Positions 6,535-18,118 are shown, counted from the stretch's first letter. The stretch: 20,000 nt of DNA from an uncultured virus (IMG/VR IMGVR_UViG_3300044715_001903) (IMGVR_UViG_3300044715_001903), one strand, 5' to 3'. Numbers and translations are program-made. Notes: a model not told the origin generated them from the sequence alone.

Positions 6535-6578
6535 CGTGTTAGATTTACAACACTTCTTTTATTTTGCGGATCACATTT

Positions 6579-7259
6579 ATGACCAAATATTTTCTAGACA
6601 CAGAATTTATAGAGGACGGAACGACTATATCATTGATATCTATAGGGATTGTCTGCGAGGATGGCAGAGAATTTTATGCCGTCAATAGGGATTGTGATTT
6701 AACTAAAGCATCCCAATGGGTAAAGAATAATGTAATTTCTAAGTTACCTCCCAAAGATCCGTTGCCTATTGAGGTTTCACCACGTCTTTGGGAGGAATCA
6801 AAAGTATGGAAAACGAAGGCTGAGATAGCGGAAGAAGTTGCTAATTTCTTCTATTGCTATGGTGAAGTAGAATCAGTAAAACCAACCGGATGGAATAAAT
6901 TTCTACTAAAAATTCAATCTCAATCTCCAATTTGGCTAATCAGGTTAATGCAAGCAACCCAGGTGTTTGCTTATCATTCAAAGACTAAAACAAAATACAG
7001 CTTAGGGATTGGTAGAGCAAAGCCTGAAATATGGGGTTACTATGCAGATTACGATCATGTCGTATTCTGCCAATTATTTGGGGCAATGATTGCATTGCCA
7101 AATGGATTTCCTATGTACACAAAAGACATCAAGCAGTTGTGTGATGACTTAGGTAATCCTGAACTACCAAAACAAGAATCTGGTGAGCATAATGCTTTAG
7201 CTGACGCGAGACACAATCAAGTCATGTATCAATTTTTGATGAATTTAAAGCAGGGTTAG
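6579..7259 (+). CDS. DEDDh 3'-5' exoribonuclease, RNase AS (Rv2179c)-like
   Basis: YFLDTEFIEDG..LISIGIV.EDGREFYAV, WGYYADYDHV..QLFG.M..LP.GFPMYTKD, HNALADARHN. ATG 6579 is preferred over TTG 6564. Confidence 0.88.
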   Translation: MTKYFLDTEFIEDGTTISLISIGIVCEDGREFYAVNRDCDLTKASQWVKNNVISKLPPKDPLPIEVSPRLWEESKVWKTKAEIAEEVANFFYCYGEVESVKPTGWNKFLLKIQSQSPIWLIRLMQATQVFAYHSKTKTKYSLGIGRAKPEIWGYYADYDHVVFCQLFGAMIALPNGFPMYTKDIKQLCDDLGNPELPKQESGEHNALADARHNQVMYQFLMNLKQG

Positions 7260-7343: not shown

Positions 7344-7952
7344 ATGACCTTCAATGTAGATATCCCCCACTTCAAATGTTTTATTAACAAGTCATTTCTT
7401 TATGATTGGGATTTACAGCAAACAGGATGCGTACCCGTCCGGGTATTCGGCATGACTTCTATTCCTGGTCGGGCAGTTGGGTTTAATTTAGTTACTAACC
7501 AGGGAGCGCAATTTGCTAGAGTCCCAATTCATGCTCTCGCTTGGAGAGAAGATTGCGAGCAACTACCATTAGATTGGTTGCAATTGTGGGATTGCTTGAG
7601 TTATCAGCCATGTGCGATCGCCTATTCCTACCTTTCCGAACTACGTTGTAAAACCATTCTCAAAGATGGAAAATGGTATGACGGTGAGTATATGTTCACA
7701 ATTGATTGGGTTGGTGGAGATTGGGCGGAAGATCCAAGCGAACATAAATGTGGCCATGTTTTAAAACTTGATAACGGTTGTTTCGCCATTCAACCCAACA
7801 ACCGAATAATCTGGTTTGACCCCAGTTTTATTACTGAACCATTAACGAAAAATCCTGGCTACAAAATCCATGCTCACAGATACAATAGCGAATCTTCTGG
7901 ATGGATATCAGAAAATAATGGCAATTTTTTCTATGAGATAATTCGATTATAG
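7344..7952 (+). CDS. Conserved phage hypothetical protein
   Basis: Motifs FGMTSIPGRA, LQLWDCLSY, GEYMFTIDW, SEHKCGHVLKLDNG.FA.QPNNRIIW. I recall this pattern from aquatic phage hypotheticals; function unknown. Confidence 0.75.
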   Translation: MTFNVDIPHFKCFINKSFLYDWDLQQTGCVPVRVFGMTSIPGRAVGFNLVTNQGAQFARVPIHALAWREDCEQLPLDWLQLWDCLSYQPCAIAYSYLSELRCKTILKDGKWYDGEYMFTIDWVGGDWAEDPSEHKCGHVLKLDNGCFAIQPNNRIIWFDPSFITEPLTKNPGYKIHAHRYNSESSGWISENNGNFFYEIIRL

Positions 7953-8031: not shown

Positions 8032-11000
8032 ATGACTTCCCTTGGTACTCTTGAACTACAGCTAACGGCCAACCAAGCCGCACTATACCAACAATTGAAT
8101 CAAACCAAGGCTTACGCCACGCAGGTAGCCAAGGGTATTGAGAAGCAGATAAACCAAGCCTTTGGAAGTGTCGGAGGAAACAGGCTAGGAGGTTTAAACC
8201 AAGCAACTGCTCAAGCTGCGAGTGCCGGACAGGCCGCGGGGAGAACTTTCACGGATAGATTCAAGAACGCAGTTGAGCCGATTAAGGGCATTTTAAGCAA
8301 TGTCTTTAATGGTGTTTTTGTTGGGGCTGGGATTGGGGCGTTTAACTCAATTACTGGTGTAGTTGGTTCGGCACTGGGTGCGGTTCAACAATTCGCGGGT
8401 GAGATTTTCAATGTTACCAAAGACTTCCAAAACTTTGAATCTTCACTAAAAACCTTCCTCAAGGGCAATCAAAAAGAAATTGATGATTTTGTCGGCAAGT
8501 TAGAGAAGTTTGCAGCTACTACACCGTTTGAGCTAAAGGATTTACAGCAAGCAGCAATCCAAAACTTAGCAACCGGTGCAAAACCAGATCAGATTATCAA
8601 AGACCTCAAAACCATTGGTGATGTCGCCGCAGGTGCTAACGCCAGACTTGGCGACTTGATGGAAGTTTACGCCAAATCACGGACTGAGGGGAAATTACAG
8701 AATGAAGACATTGACCAATTTACGGGGCGCGGGGTGCAGCTTCGGGCTGAACTTGCCAAAATGCTAGGGGCAAAGGAATCTGAAATTAGACAACTGGCCA
8801 CAGACGGAAAACTAGAATTTCGTCACCTTGAGGAAGCTTTACGCCGCATGAGTGCTGAGGGCGGGGCGTATTTTGGGGCAATGGAGAATAAAGCAAAAAC
8901 TTTAGAAGGTCGTCTATCCAACGTCCAAGATACTTTTTATCAGTTCCAGAAATCAATCGGCGTGGCATTTGAGCCGATCATGAATTTCATTGTCCAGACA
9001 TTTGGTGATATTGTGTCTGGCTTGACATCTTCTAACGGAATCATGAAGGATGTCCGCAAAGAATCTGAGAAATTAGTCGGAACTTTTAAAGCTAATCCGC
9101 AGTTGGTTCAATCCCTAAATAAAGCTATTCAAGAGTTAGTAGCGGGTGCGTTTAAATTATTATTAGACGGGATAACAAGTTTCACCAAATATTTAGAAAC
9201 TAACCCGAATATTATCAGGGATATGTCTACTGCCTTTAATGATTTTTGGGGAGTAGTTAAAGTCGTTTTTGACGGGTTAAAATTTATTTTTGATGGGATA
9301 AATTTAATTGTTGGTGGTATCCAAGCAGGTGCTAGAGGCGCGGCTGATATTTGGGTTGCCAGTGAACCAACTTTAAATAATATTTGGCAGAAAACCATTG
9401 ATATATCAAAAGCGATCGCTGATGGAATTGTTGCGGCATGGAATACCTGTGTAAATTTAGTTAAATCATTGATTAAGTTGATTCAGTCCTTATTTAATGG
9501 TGTTGTAAATCTCACAACTAACGGCATTAATTTGTTGAATGCAGGGCTAAAAACCGCAGTTTCAATTACTCAAGCTATTGGCGAAAATATTGGTAAATGG
9601 ACATCAAATATTGGTAGTGCTATTCAAAAAGCTGGGGAATTTGCAAGTCAAGGAATACCGGGAATTGGCAGCGCGTTTCAATTAGCTACCAAGAAGGCTG
9701 AGGAATTTTGGAAATGGGCAACAGGACAAAATCAACAACCAACGACACAGCCGCAAGCACAGCTACAGGCATCGTCACCTAACTCTGGTAATGGTAATAA
9801 CATAATAGGGAACATCGTTCAGGGCGTGCAAGGTTTTTTTGGGTTAGGATCACCCGCGAACCCCAAAAGCAAGGTAATCATGCGCCGCACTGGGCAAAAA
9901 GACGAAAACGGGCTAGAGAAAATAGCCTTGGTAGTTTATGACGATCAAGGACGGGCGATCGCTCAACACACTGTAAATAGCGGTACTCGTCGCACCCAAG
10001 GAATGTTCGGGGCAGGTGGAACTACTCAAAGCGGATCACTAGCACCTGTTGAATATGGCACTTACAATATTGGTGGCGAAGTTGCAGGGATGGGAGCAGG
10101 AGTTGGATCAAGATTTATTCCTGTAAATCCCACTTTTCGCACTCAACGATCTGCAATTGGTTTTCACTTAGATGCAAACCGACAGACAGCCCCAGGGAGT
10201 GCTGGGTGTATTGTTTTTGCCAACCAACAAGAGTTTGACAGTTTCCGAAATGCTCTCAAGCAAAGTGGCGCAAAACAATTGATTTTTGATGAAGGGAAGG
10301 GGCAAGTAGGTATTGTGAACGCCGTCGTCGGGACAGAGCTTAATAGCTTTAAGCCTATCCAAGAAGCAGCGAAAAATGCACTACCCACAGGTGCGGGTTT
10401 ATCGTCTCGCACTGCCAATATTGTGCGTGGTAAGAATGAGGAGATTTTCGGTAAAGCTGGCGTGACAGATAGCTTAGTTGCGCTAGTTAAAAAATCAGAA
10501 GGTTTTGCAGCAACACCATACTTTGATCGAACTCAATACTCGGTTGGTTTTGGGACTAAGGCTAAATCAACAGGCGATCGCTTAACAGTTGAAGAAGCAA
10601 ACCAACGGCTATTAAATGAGTTACTTTACAAACGTTCTCGCGTTCAGAAAATGGTCAAAGTCCCCATCAACAATAATCAATTGGATGCTTTGACCTCGTT
10701 CGCTTTTAACGTGGGTGAAGGGGCATTAGGAGAAAGTACCCTACTCAAAAAACTAAACTCTGGAGATTATGCAGGTGCGGCTAAAGAGTTTCTGAGGTGG
10801 AATAAAGGTGAACATCGCGGAGTTAAACAAGCATTGCCAGGATTAACCAAGCGGCGTAACTCTGAGATGCAATTATTTCTGAGCCAGTCAAATACTACAC
10901 CTGCTCAACAAGCAGCTATTGGAGAACGGAGAACGGGGAACGGGGAATTAGCGCAAACCCCAGGTGTCGCTCAAGGTGGCAATGCCGAAGATCAACGGAA

Positions 11001-13143
11001 TTTATTAGCAGCACGGCGTAAACTTGCAGAAACCAAATATCGAGAAATTAAAGATGAGATTGACGCGGCTACTAAACAGGCTGATAACGCTCAAAAACAG
11101 CAGCGAGAATTAGATGCTAAAAAACGTGATCAACTAGACAAAGAAAAACGGGCTGAGTTTGCAGCTTACGAGGCTTTAGCCCCAGATGATGAAGCTAAAA
11201 AGATTATTCAGAAACGCGCCAAACAATACGAGATTGATAACAGGTATCAGGAGAATTTGATCAAATTTTCTCAGGAACGCGAGGATCTTCTTGATGCCAG
11301 AAATAAGAAATTAGAGATTTTGGCAGCGGCTAAAAAGCGTGGTGAAACTGTTACGCCGGATGATGCTGGCGTGGATTACTCCAAAGCAATTAATCAGTTA
11401 GATGAAATCATCAAATCTCAGAAACAGTTGCGAGACTTGGAGTTAGAAACCAATAATTTAAACCAGTCCAGTGCAGAAAAAGAAATCGAGAAGAACAAGG
11501 ATCGTCAGCGAGAAATTGAAAAGTTATCTCGCGTCCATGAAGCGTACATTAATCAGTTGAAATTGCAGCAATCATTAGTTGGCGATGATGCGACAAAACA
11601 GGGTATCCAATTAACAATTGATAAGGCGCAGATTGAATACAGTGCTAAGGCCGCATTAATGCCACTGCAAAATCAACTTTATGATTTACAGGATCGGAAA
11701 GTTTATTTGTTGGGTGAGGGGGGATTGAAAAAAGATTCTGAGGAAGTCAAGCGGCTTCAGAAAGATATTAATAATTTAGTTGCTCAAATTCATTCAATTG
11801 CTAATAAGGGTGGCGTGGATTTAAAACTATTTGAGAATCAGCGTAAACAAATTGAGTTGCAAAATCAACGGCTAAGGGAGTCGGAAAAACAGGAAATTGA
11901 ACACAACAAACAAGTTCTTGAGCTTAATAAAGAAATTTCTACCGCACGGACTCAACAACAAAAAGCTGAGTTACAGTTTCAATTAGATAAAATAAACGCA
12001 ATTCAACAAGAAAAGCAGGTGTTAACCACTCTCAAGCAGGAATATGATGATTTAACCCAAGGACGCGAGAAATTAATCAATGAAGGCAAACTAGACGCTG
12101 CTAGTGATGTAATTAAAGTTTTAGACGGTAAGATTGCTGACTTAAACGAAAAAATTAAAATATTGGGCGAACAGTCAAAATCAAGTTTTGAAACCCTTAC
12201 CAGAGAAGGACAAAAAACCATTGAACAAGGCAGGTTTGCGGATCTAGAATCTGCGCTTTCTAAAGAAGCATCAATGTTACCAGCACAAACTGGTTTAATT
12301 CGCAGACGTGGTGGCAATGAATATGAAGTCTCCGCATTAGAAGCTGAAGCCGCAAGAATGGAGGAACAATTTAGATATAAACAAGAATTACTACAAATTG
12401 AACAACAAATAGCCGCCGCGAAAGGAAAAGCCAACGAGTACACAGAGCAAGAAATAGCTGCACTACAAGCCAATGCCGAAGCAATTAACAAGATTAATTT
12501 AGAGGGTATTTCTCAACAAGTGAAAACACTCGGCAAAGACTTATTAGATGTTGGTAAAAACGCCCTCGGTTCATTCTTTGGTGACATCATTTCTGGGTCT
12601 AAATCTGCGGGGGATGCCTTCAAAGACCTGATCGGAAGCATCGCCCAACAATTAACCCAATTGGCGGTTAACTCCCTTATTTCTAGTATCTTTGGTGGAG
12701 GTGGTGGTTTGTTCGGCGGTGGAGGCGGTAAAGGCGGTGGGATACTGGGATTTAGTGAAGGATATGTCCCCAATTACGCCACAGGAAATAGTAACCCCAT
12801 ATCAGAAGCACTAAACCGCGAGAGGGTTCAGTCAGGGGGCAGGAAAGCAATACTGGGCGTGTTTAATGAAGATGAGATGATATTGACCGCAGAACAATCT
12901 AAGCGTTTTCAAGAACTGCGATTAGACAAAATATTGAATTTTGCGAATGGTGGTATTGTCGGAGGTGGTCAAAATTTAAGTAATGAAATCGGGTCTAAAA
13001 ACATGAACATAAATATCCCCGTCACTGTAGAGGGCGGCGGGGATAGCTCGGTCAATGTTCCACAATTGCAAAATTCTCTAAGATCAGTTGTGTTGGCGGA
13101 AATTCAGAAACAACAGCGTCCGGGCGGGGCGTTGAATAGGTAA
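8032..13143 (+). CDS. Tape measure protein with internal Tlde1/LD-transpeptidase-like and GH24 lysozyme domains
   Basis: 1703 aa. N-terminal LGTLELQLTAN and tape-measure domain (FAATTPFEL..GKLQNED..TLEGRLSNVQD); amphipathic repeats; IGFH..SAGCI motif; lysozyme EG..D..GFG/NQLDALTSFAFNVG/GLTKRR.E; coiled coil; lambda-type C-terminus QKQQRPGGALNR. Confidence 0.95.
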   Translation: MTSLGTLELQLTANQAALYQQLNQTKAYATQVAKGIEKQINQAFGSVGGNRLGGLNQATAQAASAGQAAGRTFTDRFKNAVEPIKGILSNVFNGVFVGAGIGAFNSITGVVGSALGAVQQFAGEIFNVTKDFQNFESSLKTFLKGNQKEIDDFVGKLEKFAATTPFELKDLQQAAIQNLATGAKPDQIIKDLKTIGDVAAGANARLGDLMEVYAKSRTEGKLQNEDIDQFTGRGVQLRAELAKMLGAKESEIRQLATDGKLEFRHLEEALRRMSAEGGAYFGAMENKAKTLEGRLSNVQDTFYQFQKSIGVAFEPIMNFIVQTFGDIVSGLTSSNGIMKDVRKESEKLVGTFKANPQLVQSLNKAIQELVAGAFKLLLDGITSFTKYLETNPNIIRDMSTAFNDFWGVVKVVFDGLKFIFDGINLIVGGIQAGARGAADIWVASEPTLNNIWQKTIDISKAIADGIVAAWNTCVNLVKSLIKLIQSLFNGVVNLTTNGINLLNAGLKTAVSITQAIGENIGKWTSNIGSAIQKAGEFASQGIPGIGSAFQLATKKAEEFWKWATGQNQQPTTQPQAQLQASSPNSGNGNNIIGNIVQGVQGFFGLGSPANPKSKVIMRRTGQKDENGLEKIALVVYDDQGRAIAQHTVNSGTRRTQGMFGAGGTTQSGSLAPVEYGTYNIGGEVAGMGAGVGSRFIPVNPTFRTQRSAIGFHLDANRQTAPGSAGCIVFANQQEFDSFRNALKQSGAKQLIFDEGKGQVGIVNAVVGTELNSFKPIQEAAKNALPTGAGLSSRTANIVRGKNEEIFGKAGVTDSLVALVKKSEGFAATPYFDRTQYSVGFGTKAKSTGDRLTVEEANQRLLNELLYKRSRVQKMVKVPINNNQLDALTSFAFNVGEGALGESTLLKKLNSGDYAGAAKEFLRWNKGEHRGVKQALPGLTKRRNSEMQLFLSQSNTTPAQQAAIGERRTGNGELAQTPGVAQGGNAEDQRNLLAARRKLAETKYREIKDEIDAATKQADNAQKQQRELDAKKRDQLDKEKRAEFAAYEALAPDDEAKKIIQKRAKQYEIDNRYQENLIKFSQEREDLLDARNKKLEILAAAKKRGETVTPDDAGVDYSKAINQLDEIIKSQKQLRDLELETNNLNQSSAEKEIEKNKDRQREIEKLSRVHEAYINQLKLQQSLVGDDATKQGIQLTIDKAQIEYSAKAALMPLQNQLYDLQDRKVYLLGEGGLKKDSEEVKRLQKDINNLVAQIHSIANKGGVDLKLFENQRKQIELQNQRLRESEKQEIEHNKQVLELNKEISTARTQQQKAELQFQLDKINAIQQEKQVLTTLKQEYDDLTQGREKLINEGKLDAASDVIKVLDGKIADLNEKIKILGEQSKSSFETLTREGQKTIEQGRFADLESALSKEASMLPAQTGLIRRRGGNEYEVSALEAEAARMEEQFRYKQELLQIEQQIAAAKGKANEYTEQEIAALQANAEAINKINLEGISQQVKTLGKDLLDVGKNALGSFFGDIISGSKSAGDAFKDLIGSIAQQLTQLAVNSLISSIFGGGGGLFGGGGGKGGGILGFSEGYVPNYATGNSNPISEALNRERVQSGGRKAILGVFNEDEMILTAEQSKRFQELRLDKILNFANGGIVGGGQNLSNEIGSKNMNINIPVTVEGGGDSSVNVPQLQNSLRSVVLAEIQKQQRPGGALNR

Positions 13144-13949: not shown

Positions 13950-13981
13950 AAAAGACAGGGTATCTAAGTACCCTGTCTTTT
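13950..13981 (-). terminator. Intrinsic terminator of the minus-strand accessory operon (possibly bidirectional)
   Basis: Perfect 13-bp inverted repeat AAAAGACAGGGTA-TCTAAG-TACCCTGTCTTTT, 5 nt after the stop at 13987. Confidence 0.75.
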
Positions 13982-14418: not shown

Positions 14419-14521
14419 TCATTTTGAACTCCTAATGTTATGTTTGCGAATAAACCGCCAAGATATAAGCAAATATTACTTGTATCTTGGCGATCGCGGA
14501 ACTAAGAAGCTCCGCAAAAGT

Positions 14522-14884
14522 CTAACCCCACTCCAAAAACTCTATTTTCATCTTTACAGATTGCTTGAACAGTCTGTAGTCAAACTTAGATGACAGCATC
14601 AGGTTCGATTCATAGGGCTTTATGCCTTTACACCAACTAACAGATATGTGAGGATATTTGTTAGCGCAGGGAATATGATCAGGAAGTTTGACAGCTACAG
14701 CTTGTATTTTGCCGTTCCAAGCTTCATATAAAGTTGTGGCTTGGAACTCTTCGCCTATCCAGTGTGTCCAGTTTTCCCGATGCACCCCAAACTGAAGGGT
14801 TATATGGCGGGGACTCCCAACGGGGTAGCGTTGGGGAATTAATAGGGGTGTCTGGATGACAGCCCACAAAATTCCTTTAGTCAC
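14522..14884 (-). CDS. 2H phosphoesterase (cyclic phosphodiesterase; LigT/tRNA-ligase CPD/Acb1 superfamily)
   Basis: Two Hx[T/S] motifs, RHITLQFG and YPHISVS, followed by GIKPYESNLML (GVKPxxSNxML-like CPD motif). Confidence 0.8.
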   Translation of the reverse strand: MTKGILWAVIQTPLLIPQRYPVGSPRHITLQFGVHRENWTHWIGEEFQATTLYEAWNGKIQAVAVKLPDHIPCANKYPHISVSWCKGIKPYESNLMLSSKFDYRLFKQSVKMKIEFLEWG

Positions 14885-15239
14885 CTAAAGAAACCAGTGA
14901 ATAAATAATATCCGCTTTTATGTCCTCCGTCTGTTGCTCCAGTGGCAACCCTACCAACTCTGAATCAAGCAGACTAACCCTAACACCGACTTTGAACAAC
15001 TTGATCAAGGTCAGTCCACCTACCGAATCAGCGATTATGTGGTCGCCTTTATTTAGGATGATTTTAACCTCTTTCACGAGGTCTTTATCGTCGTAGCAGT
15101 GTTCAAATTCCTCAACTACGAGGACACCTTCCCTGATATAGAAATAAAAGGTGTTACCTTGACTTTCCCTCTCGTAGGAAAAGTCGGGATTAATCCCTAA
15201 CTTCTGGTTAAATTCCTGACTTAAAAACGAGTAGATCAT
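14877..15239 (-). CDS. Hypothetical protein
   Basis: ATG at 15239 with a GAGG RBS (120 aa). The ORF-track GTG at 15278 lies in the ribozyme stem I. The stop overlaps the start of the 2H gene. Confidence 0.7.
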   Translation of the reverse strand: MIYSFLSQEFNQKLGINPDFSYERESQGNTFYFYIREGVLVVEEFEHCYDDKDLVKEVKIILNKGDHIIADSVGGLTLIKLFKVGVRVSLLDSELVGLPLEQQTEDIKADIIYSLVSLGD

Positions 15240-15267
15240 GTTTATTTCCTCTTGTGGGGTGAAATTG

Positions 15268-15329
15268 TGACTTCCCACGACTACCAGGTGGTAGTTTCGT
15301 CCGGTAGTCAGCCGGACTCGTCAGGCGGG
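15268..15329 (-). ncRNA. Hammerhead ribozyme, type I, with loop II pseudoknot
   Basis: Minus strand: CCCGC CUGACGA GUCCGG[CUGACUA]CCGGAC GAAA CUACC[ACCU]GGUAG UC^ GUGGG A AGUCA. All core nucleotides, three stems, a GUC cleavage triplet, and loop II UGACU complementary to the 3' AGUCA are present. Confidence 0.9.
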
Positions 15330-15355
15330 CTATTCAAACTTTATGCCCCTCTCTT
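15286..15355. repeat. 70-bp direct repeat, copy 1
   Basis: 64 identical nt + 1 mismatch + 5 identical nt versus 16501-16570; spacing 1215 bp. Confidence 0.97.
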
Positions 15356-16452
15356 GACTCTTGTTTGAGCCACTTCTCAAAGGGCTTAACAACACCGTTC
15401 TTTATCTTCTGATCGTGCCTGTACTCGTCGTACCTTTTTTCTTGTTGCTGCTTAATTTCTTCTTGTTGCGCGAGCAACTCACTTGCCCGTCTGCGTTCAG
15501 CCAATAGGCTGTTTATATGGTTCATAATCTCATCTCTATCTGAACCCAAGGATTTAGATTTCCTGGTGCGTTCAGCCAACCCACGGGTGCGGTCTTCACA
15601 TTGTTGCCACACTGTCCCATCTTGGGTGTCCCACCAGAATGAATAAATGTAATCATCACCAATCCAAAAGCGATTGACGCTGCCCTTGGAATAAACCTCT
15701 TTCTGAAACCACTCAGGCATGGGTATGGCGGACTCAGCCGCTTTTATGGCTGCTTGTCTTGCTGCTAAATCTGCAGCATCAAAAGCCGCGTTCTTTTGTT
15801 TTCGATTTTCAATGTCACTAACAAACAGTTCCCATGTCATTTTTTCTCTTTTGCAGTGTTCATAAATTAAAACCTGTATTCTCCCCACTACTTCCTGTTC
15901 AGTAGGAATAGTGTATGTTTTCTTATTTTCAGTAACCCAGATGATAGTACCATCTGAGTGTTTATATTCATATTTTGTGTATACGTGTTTGTCAACAGAA
16001 TCGGCAAAGCCAAAACCGTCCATTTGGTCATAAGTAGCTACTTCTTTATCACGTCCGGTAGCTTTAAAAACTTGACCGCAATATTTACGGTCTAATTCGT
16101 GTATATAGTAGCTAATCCCGGAAGATAAACCTGAACCGAAGAAGCCCCAAGCACCTCTTGTTTGGTACTTGTGCCAGTCATCTAACTTATTAAACCCATT
16201 CTTAATGTCAGACAACAAAGCATCTTTTACTTCTAATTGCTCTTGCTTTTCTTCACCCCAGGAAACACACTGGGATAGTCTGTCGCAATCAAAATCTATG
16301 CTGCCGTAAATTTCAATTTCTGTTTCTTCCCAGTCAAGTTCATCAGGGTTAATCCCTGTTGCAATAATTCCATCAACTAAAGATCCGCCAAGGATCTTAT
16401 TTAATTTCTTCTGAATAGTAAAGTGTAAATCCTGAGCATTAATCTTAAACAT
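15334..16452 (-). CDS. Hypothetical protein (372 aa) flanked by the hammerhead repeats
   Basis: ATG at 16452 with a GAGGA RBS is preferred over GTG 16485; charged, coiled-coil C-terminus; no family recognised. Confidence 0.8.
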   Translation of the reverse strand: MFKINAQDLHFTIQKKLNKILGGSLVDGIIATGINPDELDWEETEIEIYGSIDFDCDRLSQCVSWGEEKQEQLEVKDALLSDIKNGFNKLDDWHKYQTRGAWGFFGSGLSSGISYYIHELDRKYCGQVFKATGRDKEVATYDQMDGFGFADSVDKHVYTKYEYKHSDGTIIWVTENKKTYTIPTEQEVVGRIQVLIYEHCKREKMTWELFVSDIENRKQKNAAFDAADLAARQAAIKAAESAIPMPEWFQKEVYSKGSVNRFWIGDDYIYSFWWDTQDGTVWQQCEDRTRGLAERTRKSKSLGSDRDEIMNHINSLLAERRRASELLAQQEEIKQQQEKRYDEYRHDQKIKNGVVKPFEKWLKQESREGHKV

Positions 16453-16477
16453 TTTTTCTTCCTCATTTATATCAATT

Positions 16478-16544
16478 TGAATCACCTCGTCTACCCAACG
16501 AGGTGGTAGTTTCGTCCGGTAGTCAGCCGGACTCGTCAGGCGGG
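16478..16544 (-). ncRNA. Second hammerhead-like motif, variant/degenerate
   Basis: Same 5' core and stem II as copy 1 and stem III CUACC/GGUAG, but the cleavage triplet is GAC, the stem I 3' strand is GAGGU and the pseudoknot partner is AUUCA. Confidence 0.55.
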
Positions 16545-16570
16545 CTATTCAAACTTTATGCCCCACTCTT
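16501..16570. repeat. 70-bp direct repeat, copy 2
   Basis: See 15286-15355. Confidence 0.97.
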
Positions 16571-16697
16571 CTAGCTGGGCTAAAGCCCAAGTGCAGCCAT
16601 TTTTGGCTGCTTCTTCAACTGAAGTGATCGCTTCAAGCGTTATATATTCTGCAGTTGCTTCCATTTGGCAGTTGTTCTCAACTTTTACTAGCTTCAC
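16545..16697 (-). CDS. Small hypothetical protein (50 aa), missing from the ORF track
   Basis: GTG start with AAGGA RBS right after the sigma70 promoter: MKLVKVENNCQMEATAEYITLEAITSVEEAAKNGCTWALAQLEEWGIKFE*. The stop TAG abuts hammerhead stem I. Confidence 0.65.
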   Translation of the reverse strand: MKLVKVENNCQMEATAEYITLEAITSVEEAAKNGCTWALAQLEEWGIKFE

Positions 16698-16730: not shown

Positions 16731-16759
16731 AGTCTACTAGAGTTATTCTAGTTTGTCAA
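16731..16759 (-). promoter_or_regulatory. Sigma70-type promoter of the accessory operon with a palindromic operator in the spacer
   Basis: TTGACA-N17-TAGACT on the minus strand; ACTAGA-N5-TCTAGT palindrome at 16736-16752. Confidence 0.8.
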
Positions 16760-17211: not shown

Positions 17212-17967
17212 CTACCCCACCCACCGGCACACGAACCGAGTAGCCGTCTCCCAATATCCACCATACATAAACAACTCACTCATCCGCCCTTCACCTAAAT
17301 TGTGGAGGGCTTTGCCATTTTTAGGATCTAGCAAAATTGCGGAGTGGTGAGTCTGTGTGCCAGAAATGCACATCAATATAACATCATTAGTTCGTAGTGG
17401 TTCATCGGTTAATTTCCTAAAGCCCGCCCTTTCAAAATTGCCTACGAACATATTCCATCCAGGTGACGTGGTTTCTTGGATGTTGTTGCGGGGAAAATCA
17501 GGTAAATTTATGCCAAGCATCCCTTTATAGTACGAACGAACCAGCGTGTAACAATCACTGCGGTTATAGTCAAATCTCCATCCCAGATAAAACGGTAATT
17601 CTTTCGGCAGCCAAGGATTTGGGATTAACGGGTAGGGGTAAATATCGGCAGGATCATAATAGTCCCATTCCCCAAAGTCCGTATGGTACAAAGCGTAGGG
17701 TATTTTCCTTGCTTTGCTATTGGCGATGTCCTTGGCACTTAAAATAGCCGGCTGTGAATCAAGGCAATGACTGTGGTAGATTCCCACTGCGGAGTCAGCG
17801 ACTAACTCAAACTCATCTTCATTAATCAGAAATTCGTGTTGCGGTTCATTTGCACAATTGTTCATTTGTATAATTGTGCCGTTGTTCAGAACTACGCCAC
17901 AGATTTCTACATCCGGCGTGGCGATCGCTTGCTCAATAATTTGCCGCTTGATTTGTGAGGTTAGCAT
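17212..17967 (-). CDS. Tail tip assembly protein K-like (JAB/MPN + NlpC/P60)
   Basis: EICGVV..IYHSH..LSAKD (JAB), then F.YNRSDCYTLVRSYY..HHSAIL..LHNL..RMSE..YGGYW (NlpC/P60), which is the lambda gpK architecture. Confidence 0.92.
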   Translation of the reverse strand: MLTSQIKRQIIEQAIATPDVEICGVVLNNGTIIQMNNCANEPQHEFLINEDEFELVADSAVGIYHSHCLDSQPAILSAKDIANSKARKIPYALYHTDFGEWDYYDPADIYPYPLIPNPWLPKELPFYLGWRFDYNRSDCYTLVRSYYKGMLGINLPDFPRNNIQETTSPGWNMFVGNFERAGFRKLTDEPLRTNDVILMCISGTQTHHSAILLDPKNGKALHNLGEGRMSELFMYGGYWETATRFVCRWVG

Positions 17968-18027: not shown

Positions 18028-18046
18028 AAGGGGTCAGAGTCTCAAC

Positions 18047-18118
18047 TGTCGGGGATGGGAATTGAACCCAATATTTCGAGCTTATGAGACTCGCGTGATC
18101 CGTTTCACTCCCCCGGCA
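18047..18118 (-). tRNA. tRNA with CAT anticodon (Met-like), atypical
   Basis: GCCGGGG-GA-GTGA(AACGGA)TCAC-G-CGAGT(CTCATAA)GCTCG-AAATA-TTGGG(TTCAATT)CCCAT-CCCCGAC-A. C-A mismatch in the acceptor stem, T-T in the T stem, no encoded CCA. Confidence 0.75.

Follow-up and report, generated by a model that had tools for sequence, protein, structure and literature searches.

A probable type I hammerhead ribozyme between two genes of an uncultured virus, and a family of related elements in phage contigs

Between two genes encoded on the same strand of an uncultured virus (IMG/VR IMGVR_UViG_3300044715_001903) lies a short element that a first, sequence-only reading took for a canonical hammerhead ribozyme, and it raises the question of whether this is a genuine self-cutting RNA and, if so, what role a cut at this place would play. 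The window referred to throughout is the whole 20,000-nt stretch of DNA that was analyzed. On the comparative evidence described below, we hold it very probable that minus-strand positions 15329..15268 are a genuine type I hammerhead, with an active fold stabilized by a pseudoknot between loop II and the 3' tail, and that it likely serves as an intercistronic cutter.

The element is part of a row of minus-strand features consisting of a promoter-like site, a 50-aa ORF, a decayed ribozyme copy, a 372-aa gene, the hammerhead considered here (HH1), a 120-aa gene (orfA), a 2H phosphoesterase gene, a 143-aa gene, and a hairpin followed by a U-run. Those that frame HH1 are as follows.

16731..16759, minus: sigma-70-like promoter match TTGACA-17-TAGACT (10/12), the best upstream of the operon; a consensus match only
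15334..16452, minus: upstream gene, 372 aa, hypothetical, with its ATG at 16452 preceded by GAGGAAG and its TGA at 15336-15334
15237..15251, minus: GAGG Shine-Dalgarno site (15251-15248) and ATG (15239-15237), the start of the 120-aa gene
14877..15239, minus: downstream gene orfA, 120 aa, no family match
14522-14884, minus: mini 2H phosphoesterase, 120 aa, with motifs H27-I-T and H79-I-S; its first 8 nt are also the last 8 nt of orfA
13950..13977, minus: hairpin GACAGGGUA/UACCCUGUC and then UUUU, past the 143-aa gene; found by eye and absent from the terminator scan

The promoter scan as a whole shows no enrichment (7 sites against 11.7 in shuffles), and the hairpin with its UUUU is a possible end of the operon. 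The upstream ORF is counted as 372 aa from the ATG at 16452, and the ORF listing gives 383 aa from an upstream GTG. Its product has no Pfam or NCBIfam match, and its homologues are all hypothetical, two of them labeled as a Sphaerospermopsis kisseleviana MAG. Neither the orfA product nor the 143-aa protein has a family match, and an NCBIfam search with seven proteins gave none; homologues of orfA follow the hammerhead in related contigs. The stop codon of the upstream gene is 4 nt before stem I and the next ATG (15239) is 39 nt past the predicted cut, just as the sequence-only reading had placed the element, past the stop of the 372-aa gene and about 40 nt before the next start. Its description of the operon as that of a cyanophage is also reasonable, because the sole deposited phage found to carry the element, CL131, infects Aphanizomenon and homologues of the 372-aa protein occur in Sphaerospermopsis-labeled contigs.

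Read along the minus strand from 15329 to 15268, the RNA is CCCGC/CUGACGA/GUCCGG-CUGACUA-CCGGAC/GAAA/CUACC-ACCU-GGUAG/UC/GUGGG/A/AGUCA, and our re-reading matches the earlier transcription of it exactly. Its parts are these.

15268..15329, minus: putative type I hammerhead ribozyme (HH1), from the sequence reading, the RF00163 alignment and the covariation of its relatives
15329-15325 with 15278-15274, minus: stem I, open, 5 bp
15324-15318, minus: core CUGACGA
15317-15312 with 15304-15299, minus: stem II, 6 bp, with loop II (7 nt) at 15311-15305
15298-15296, minus: G12 A13 A14
15295-15290 with 15285-15280, minus: stem III, 6 bp, with loop III (4 nt) at 15289-15286
15281-15279, minus: GUC, with C17 at 15279 and the predicted cut at 15279/15278 (C15279/G15278)
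15306..15310, minus: loop II half of the pseudoknot, UGACU, pairing with 15272-15268
15268..15272, minus: 3'-tail half of the pseudoknot, AGUCA, beginning 1 nt past stem I

All of the sequence features of a type I hammerhead are present. The nucleotides C3 U4 G5 A6 N7 G8 A9 and G12 A13 A14 are in place, and the core columns are invariant in 36 aligned relatives (alignment A1, below). Three helices are arranged round this core, stem I being open and stem II closed by G10.1-C11.1, and the pair A15.1-U16.1 (A15295-U15280) followed by C at position 17 makes an NUH site. UGACU (15310-15306) is complementary to AGUCA (15272-15268) over 5 bp. Together with the comparative evidence, these features bear out the original description of a canonical core with three stems.

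Searching with the Rfam hammerhead models, a check that had been proposed with that description, gives a divided answer: RF00163 aligns every core position (CUGAcGA, GAAAC and GUC) with an E-value of 0.0021 in a 301-nt search using an E-value threshold, but its score of 23.1 bits lies under the gathering cut-off of 34. The shortfall is attributable to loops II and III, where the element has insertions of 11 nt and 10 nt that the 45-position model lacks, and it is because of this score that the element has gone unannotated; at gathering thresholds the whole window reports tRNA only, and no hammerhead. The copy in CL131 is unreported by RF00163 at E-values up to 1.

Thermodynamic predictions give the nested hammerhead fold -23.6 kcal/mol, to which the pseudoknot duplex adds about -3.7. 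For the 69-nt element, the minimum free energy (MFE) structure is an alternative fold that competes with the hammerhead by pairing CUACCGG, from loop II and the 3' strand of stem II, with CCUGGUAG; at -24.1 kcal/mol it is favored over the nested hammerhead by 0.5 kcal/mol. The competition arises because CUACC is duplicated, being present on the minus strand both within 15299-15311, at the loop II/stem II junction, and within 15280-15294, in the stem III 5' strand. The hammerhead is the MFE structure for prefixes of 52, 58 and 63 nt, and the folding model therefore predicts that co-transcriptional folding should reach the active form first. We note that the same duplication occurs in CL131 and in four related viral loci (L003, L007, L009 and L010) and is absent from more distant relatives.

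The relatives of HH1 provide the main evidence. A blastn search with 14800-16500 against 50,697 phage records returned a single match, covering 15257-15329 only, at 82.7% identity (E 1e-8). This is a 73-nt element of Aphanizomenon phage vB_AphaS-CL131, located between gp142 and gp141 on the same strand as both and with no annotation at the site. Relative to the window, the CL131 copy has two compensatory pairs in stem II, and its pseudoknot reads UGGCU/AGCCA rather than UGACU/AGUCA. A strict sequence pattern matched eight IMG/VR viral contigs, one of which has a G-U at the pseudoknot position that differs in CL131, and a looser pattern matched at least 135 stretches in viral contigs. Among the looser-pattern matches listed, 59 of the 118 unique sequences pass a strict parser; most of the others are versions of this ribozyme in which stem II has a bulged A, and some two dozen resemble random sequence. 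Alignment A1 consists of 36 parser-selected sequences, and a covariance model, R1, was built without the pseudoknot. In the loci collected here R1 finds 165 matches in 140 viral-contig loci (117 in 85 sources and 48 in 55 further sources); its score of 76.7 bits for HH1 is circular, because the window sequence sits in the R1 seed.

A larger alignment, A2, contains 85 distinct rows. Pairing holds for 92.0% of its cells; shuffles give 71.6%, with none of the 500 attaining the real figure, and slid controls give 44.8% at most, although these percentages lean toward the structure, since stems I-III were parser-selected in A1 and model-fitted in A2, and the shuffle counts are not probabilities, since the aligned sequences are related. 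Changes on both sides are seen in 20 of the 22 pairs and affect all four helices, stems I-III and the pseudoknot; stems I, II and III account for five pairs each, counts that lean toward the model fitted. Stem I did not vary in the initial set but shows covariation once the set is enlarged (CCCGC/GCGGG, CCUAC/GUAGG and CCCGU/ACGGG). The A15.1-U16.1 pair is AU in 84 of the 85 distinct relatives, the exception being the window's own decayed copy, and some relatives have GUA at the cleavage site, consistent with the NUH rule.

The evidence for the pseudoknot is free of the biases of parser selection and model fitting, because the pseudoknot is outside both the model and the filters. Covariation is found at alignment columns 28-118, 29-117 and 30-116. 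The three central pairs are paired in 76, 79 and 74 of the 85 A2 rows, the rest being unpaired or gapped, with compositions of GC:63 GU:8 AU:5, of GC:67 AU:11, and of CG:34 UA:32 GC:5. The mean Watson-Crick run is 3.61 in the 49 unique loop/tail combinations and falls to 2.75 when the tails are permuted among them (sd 0.12, maximum 3.18, 1000 permutations). The UGACU/AGUCA pairing proposed in the sequence-only reading is thus complementary in the window, covaries in its relatives, and agrees with the permutation test. These alignments show stems I-III and the pseudoknot to be maintained by compensatory changes across a large family present in phage contigs, and from comparison of sequences we conclude that HH1 is a genuine hammerhead whose active fold is maintained by selection.

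The strict pattern has no match in 185,579 prokaryote genomes. The looser pattern finds 31 stretches in prokaryote genomes, in Oscillospiraceae, Selenomonadales, Clostridia, Desulfoscipio, Barnesiella, Verrucomicrobia and Geminicoccaceae, as well as in three cyanobacterial or Melainabacteria-like MAGs. As pattern matches, these 31 putative hammerheads show the breadth of the wider hammerhead family.

The location of HH1 between a stop codon and a ribosome-binding site is shared by many of its relatives. Among 124 instances with flanks of at least 200 nt, 79 have an upstream ORF of at least 40 codons that ends no more than 12 nt from stem I, and 62 of those 79 end within 4 nt of it; a Shine-Dalgarno site and start codon are present no more than 120 nt past the cut in 105 of the 124, at a median of 43 nt. 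Judged by these flanks, the family is typically intercistronic, in the order stop codon, ribozyme, about 40 nt, Shine-Dalgarno site, AUG. Hammerhead arrays are common: CL131 has two copies, and a 118-kb contig (G002) has four, at intervals of about 400 nt. The four in G002 (locus L007, 2065-3375) each lie past a stop codon and flank orfA paralogues, and two of them have GUA in place of GUC at the cleavage site. All eight strict-pattern matches (L003-L010) are within about 3 kb of a viral contig end, and the CL131 element is 7.6 kb from the end of its linear record; the hammerhead module may be near a genome terminus.

These positions suggest how the ribozyme could act. The operon would be transcribed from the minus strand as a polycistronic RNA, and the ribozyme would fold once its tail emerges in the transcript made by the polymerase. 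The predicted cut after C15279 would leave the mRNA of the 372-aa gene with a 2',3'-cyclic phosphate and the mRNA for orfA, the 2H protein and the 143-aa protein with a 5'-OH, and with these distinct ends the two parts of the operon would acquire separate stabilities and translation. We infer that the 5'-OH downstream mRNA may be stabilized, as the sequence-only reading had suggested. One study provides four metatranscriptome runs, and the contigs of these RNA libraries cover 14479-15258, 15325-15491 and 15982-16692; they are strandless, and DNA carry-over is possible. None covers 15259-15324, a gap that can be read neither way, since the contigs are short and of low depth and carry no information on ends or strand.

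A further step may follow the cut, and it involves one more feature.

15254..15258, minus: CCCAC, complement of the stem I 3' strand GUGGG (15278-15274), abutting the Shine-Dalgarno site

More tentatively, the freed GUGGG might pair with CCCAC (15258-15254) after cleavage; the hairpin formed in this way would take the place of stem I, prevent reversal of the cut, and leave the 5'-OH end capped immediately before the ribosome-binding site. The GUGGG/CCCAC hairpin is the MFE structure of the 3' product (-7.2 kcal/mol), and in the window alone it is not significant, as 12% of shuffles do equally well. Across the family, 76 of 113 unique 3' products contain, within 32 nt, a 4-nt stretch complementary to their own 5' end, and of ten hammerheads with a variant stem I, seven carry their own complement and one the majority CCAC. 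The pairing probability of nucleotides 1-4 is 0.88, against 0.66 with shuffled downstream sequence, and is higher in 90 of 108 products, which are not phylogenetically independent. A post-cleavage hairpin at the 5' end of the downstream mRNA is plausible on these grounds, if somewhat short of an even bet. An adjacent hairpin, GUGG-GAAA-CCAC, was rejected as independent evidence: three-quarters of its 3' nucleotides are already pseudoknot partners, and its covariation is thin (82.9% against 81.2% paired, with six cells changed on both sides, a number reached by 29 of 500 shuffles), with stem I varying very little. Judged by its listing, a literature search on product release or alternative hairpins in natural hammerheads gave nothing relevant, though such a hairpin may already have been published.

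The second gene past the cut bears on the fate of these RNA ends. Its product matches PF08302 at 31.7 bits (cut-off 23), and both histidines are invariant in 19 sequences. A structural model of it (pLDDT 72.9) has the CNPase catalytic domain as its top 40+ Foldseek matches, which are weak (E 4.8e-3, TMq 0.52), and its sequence has no meaningful match in the PDB (best E 0.13); two H-x-T/S motifs and a predicted CNPase/LigT-like fold place it among the 2H phosphoesterases. The gene is syntenic with hammerheads in the window, in six relatives (L003, L007, L009, L022, L049 and L062) and in CL131 (record 96757-97113). CNPase and Trl1-CPD family enzymes open 2',3'-cyclic phosphates.

These observations favor the idea that HH1 is an active ribozyme selected for a different role, be it to form the upstream mRNA's 3' end, with a 2',3'-cyclic phosphate that would bar 3' exonucleases and tailing, to make ends for repair or ligation by the 2H enzyme, or to produce excised or circular RNAs where a gene has a copy on either side. 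A small phage 2H enzyme could equally degrade signaling nucleotides, however, and the gene is present in none of four unrelated multi-hammerhead phage contigs (G005-G008, 32-72% complete). Excision of the 372-aa gene would require the second ribozyme copy, which lacks U16.1. Splicing or circular products were raised as a possibility by Perreault et al. in 2011 (PMC3088659), but they report detecting none. We regard a role of this kind as unlikely compared with intercistronic cutting. A general link between 2H genes and hammerheads was likewise rejected as unsupported, because of the same four contigs, and the association may be plain synteny within one lineage; that the 2H enzyme acts on cyclic phosphate ends made by the ribozyme is only an idea. 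Also doubtful is a more elaborate form of the cutter, in which the hammerheads would be complete "cistron separators" that carry their own switch: after the cut the 3' strand of stem I would re-pair downstream, a ribosome terminating at the stop codon could gate the folding, and in this cyanophage lineage the 2H enzyme might act on the cyclic ends.

The second copy itself, and a repeat that includes part of both copies, are located as follows.

16473-16546, minus: second, decayed hammerhead copy (R1 44.2 bits, E 1.9e-11)
15283..15355: 73-nt direct repeat, copy 1, made up of the last 24 nt before the ribozyme and the ribozyme's 5' two-thirds
16498..16570: 73-nt direct repeat, copy 2

The decayed copy is 21 nt upstream of the ATG of the 372-aa gene. 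Its 5' 47 nt are identical to HH1 and its 3' part diverges, with A at 16.1, three of five stem I pairs, four of five pseudoknot pairs, and the capacity to form a competing 7-bp hairpin, ACCUCGU/ACGAGGU; it is probably inactive. The two copies of the direct repeat are 97% identical and bracket the 372-aa gene, and the boundary of identity falls inside loop III, which suggests that the ribozyme copies have recombined with each other.

One might accordingly ask whether such elements, 60-70 nt in length, are kept mainly as blocks of homology for the shuffling of gene cassettes, with catalysis secondary. The repeat and its boundary inside loop III fit this explanation, as do the four hammerheads about 400 nt apart that flank orfA paralogues in G002 and the differences between relatives in the genes beside the ribozymes; Perreault et al. 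(PMC3088659) also describe flanked genes that are not constant. Recombination needs only identity, however; it has no need of helices and a pseudoknot that covary, or of a catalytic core that does not change, and a function in recombination can coexist with catalysis without replacing it. As the principal reason for the presence of HH1 we therefore consider it quite unlikely, and an active ribozyme acting between cistrons remains our preferred reading.

If helices are disregarded, 0.14 matches to the core pattern are expected in a shuffled 20-kb window, and 4 of 200 shuffles give two or more, which makes the core by itself weak evidence. That HH1 is a chance or fossil hammerhead-like sequence without activity, an explanation to which this frequency, the unreached Rfam gathering score and the clearly decayed copy 1.2 kb away (evidence that decay does occur in this genome) lend something, is highly improbable in view of its helices, its wholly intact core, a blastn match to CL131 that within 14800-16500 is confined to the element, and compensatory changes in all helices and the pseudoknot among 85 distinct relatives, whereas the decayed copy, unlike HH1, has lost U16.1 and two stem I pairs.

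Protein-dependent processing of phage mRNAs between cistrons is familiar from the RNase III sites of T7 and the RNase E and RegB sites of T4. There too a polycistronic phage transcript is cut between genes, and the products can carry terminal hairpins; in contrast, HH1 is predicted to cut itself without a nuclease and to leave a 5'-OH and a 2',3'-cyclic phosphate rather than a 5'-phosphate and a 3'-OH. The RAGATH-1 hammerhead (RF03152) has a hammerhead core with an upstream hairpin, and cmscan aligned the window to it; membership was rejected at 18.1 bits against a cut-off of 56.3 (E 1.1).

The closest known elements are the type I hammerheads (RF00163, clan CL00010) described by Perreault et al. 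(PMC3088659), who found that about 40% of representatives, across all three hammerhead types, have pseudoknots, reported hammerhead clusters flanking prophage genes, and proposed that hammerheads cut long phage transcripts into shorter mRNAs. HH1 shares with the hammerheads of that paper the core, the open stem I and a pseudoknot replacing loop-loop contacts, and likewise the position between same-strand genes of a phage operon, sometimes in arrays, for which transcript processing was proposed. Because its layout and pseudoknot match these descriptions, we class it as an ordinary representative of a family already described in 2011, and not new in kind. Unlike the hammerheads described there, the present subfamily has long loops II and III, and in many of its members stem II has a bulged A or A9 is followed by an additional U; for these reasons it falls below the RF00163 cut-off. 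The paper makes no mention of cyanobacteria, stop codons, Shine-Dalgarno sites or ribosome binding, and describes neither adjacency to a stop codon nor a downstream complement of stem I. According to a 2019 review (PMC6765202), what hammerheads do in bacteria and phages has yet to be proved; in bacteria, small ribozymes close to phage-like genes, twister among them, which have a different fold and core from HH1, have been suggested to process polycistronic transcripts into products of differing stability, and their role is likewise unproven. A literature search on hammerheads and cyanophages gave no paper on such an element by title or abstract.

With the present analysis, a lineage of phages that infect bloom-forming Nostocales gains a well-supported hammerhead; CL131, one member of that lineage, is a cultured phage-host system with two copies, both unannotated. 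It also reveals a large phage subfamily missed by the Rfam type I model (165 R1 matches in the loci collected here), and phage annotation would benefit from a model of the R1 type. The regular layout and the downstream complement of stem I lead to concrete hypotheses on the role of phage hammerheads that can be tested by mutation in a system amenable to experiment.

The CL131 genome paper does not mention a ribozyme or a hammerhead. The two CL131 elements are on the minus strand of its record, at 105167-105234 and 98375-98443. The second CL131 hammerhead (L146 / MG209611.1, 98375-98443, minus) is located directly past the gp131 stop, and the annotated 24-aa gp130 (98349-98423) falls inside it; gp130 is probably not a gene. 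A sub-threshold SAM-II riboswitch match (L001, 3973-4029, minus; 26.5 bits, cut-off 44) overlaps both the A-rich leader of the CL131 hammerhead and its 3' part, and is most likely a chance match to the A-run.

The remainder of the window carries tail genes, including minor tail proteins and a tail-tip-like gene (17212-17967, minus). A 1703-aa tape-measure protein (8032-13143, plus) contains an internal phage lysozyme domain (PF00959, E 1e-32), and before its gene in the tail module are those for a ferredoxin-phrog protein (7344-7952) and an Rv2179c-like 3'-5' exoribonuclease protein (RNase H phrog, 6564-7259). A tRNA-Met gene with anticodon CAT (18046-18118, minus; 48.4 bits with Rfam) is followed by a hairpin and T-run at 18027-18005.
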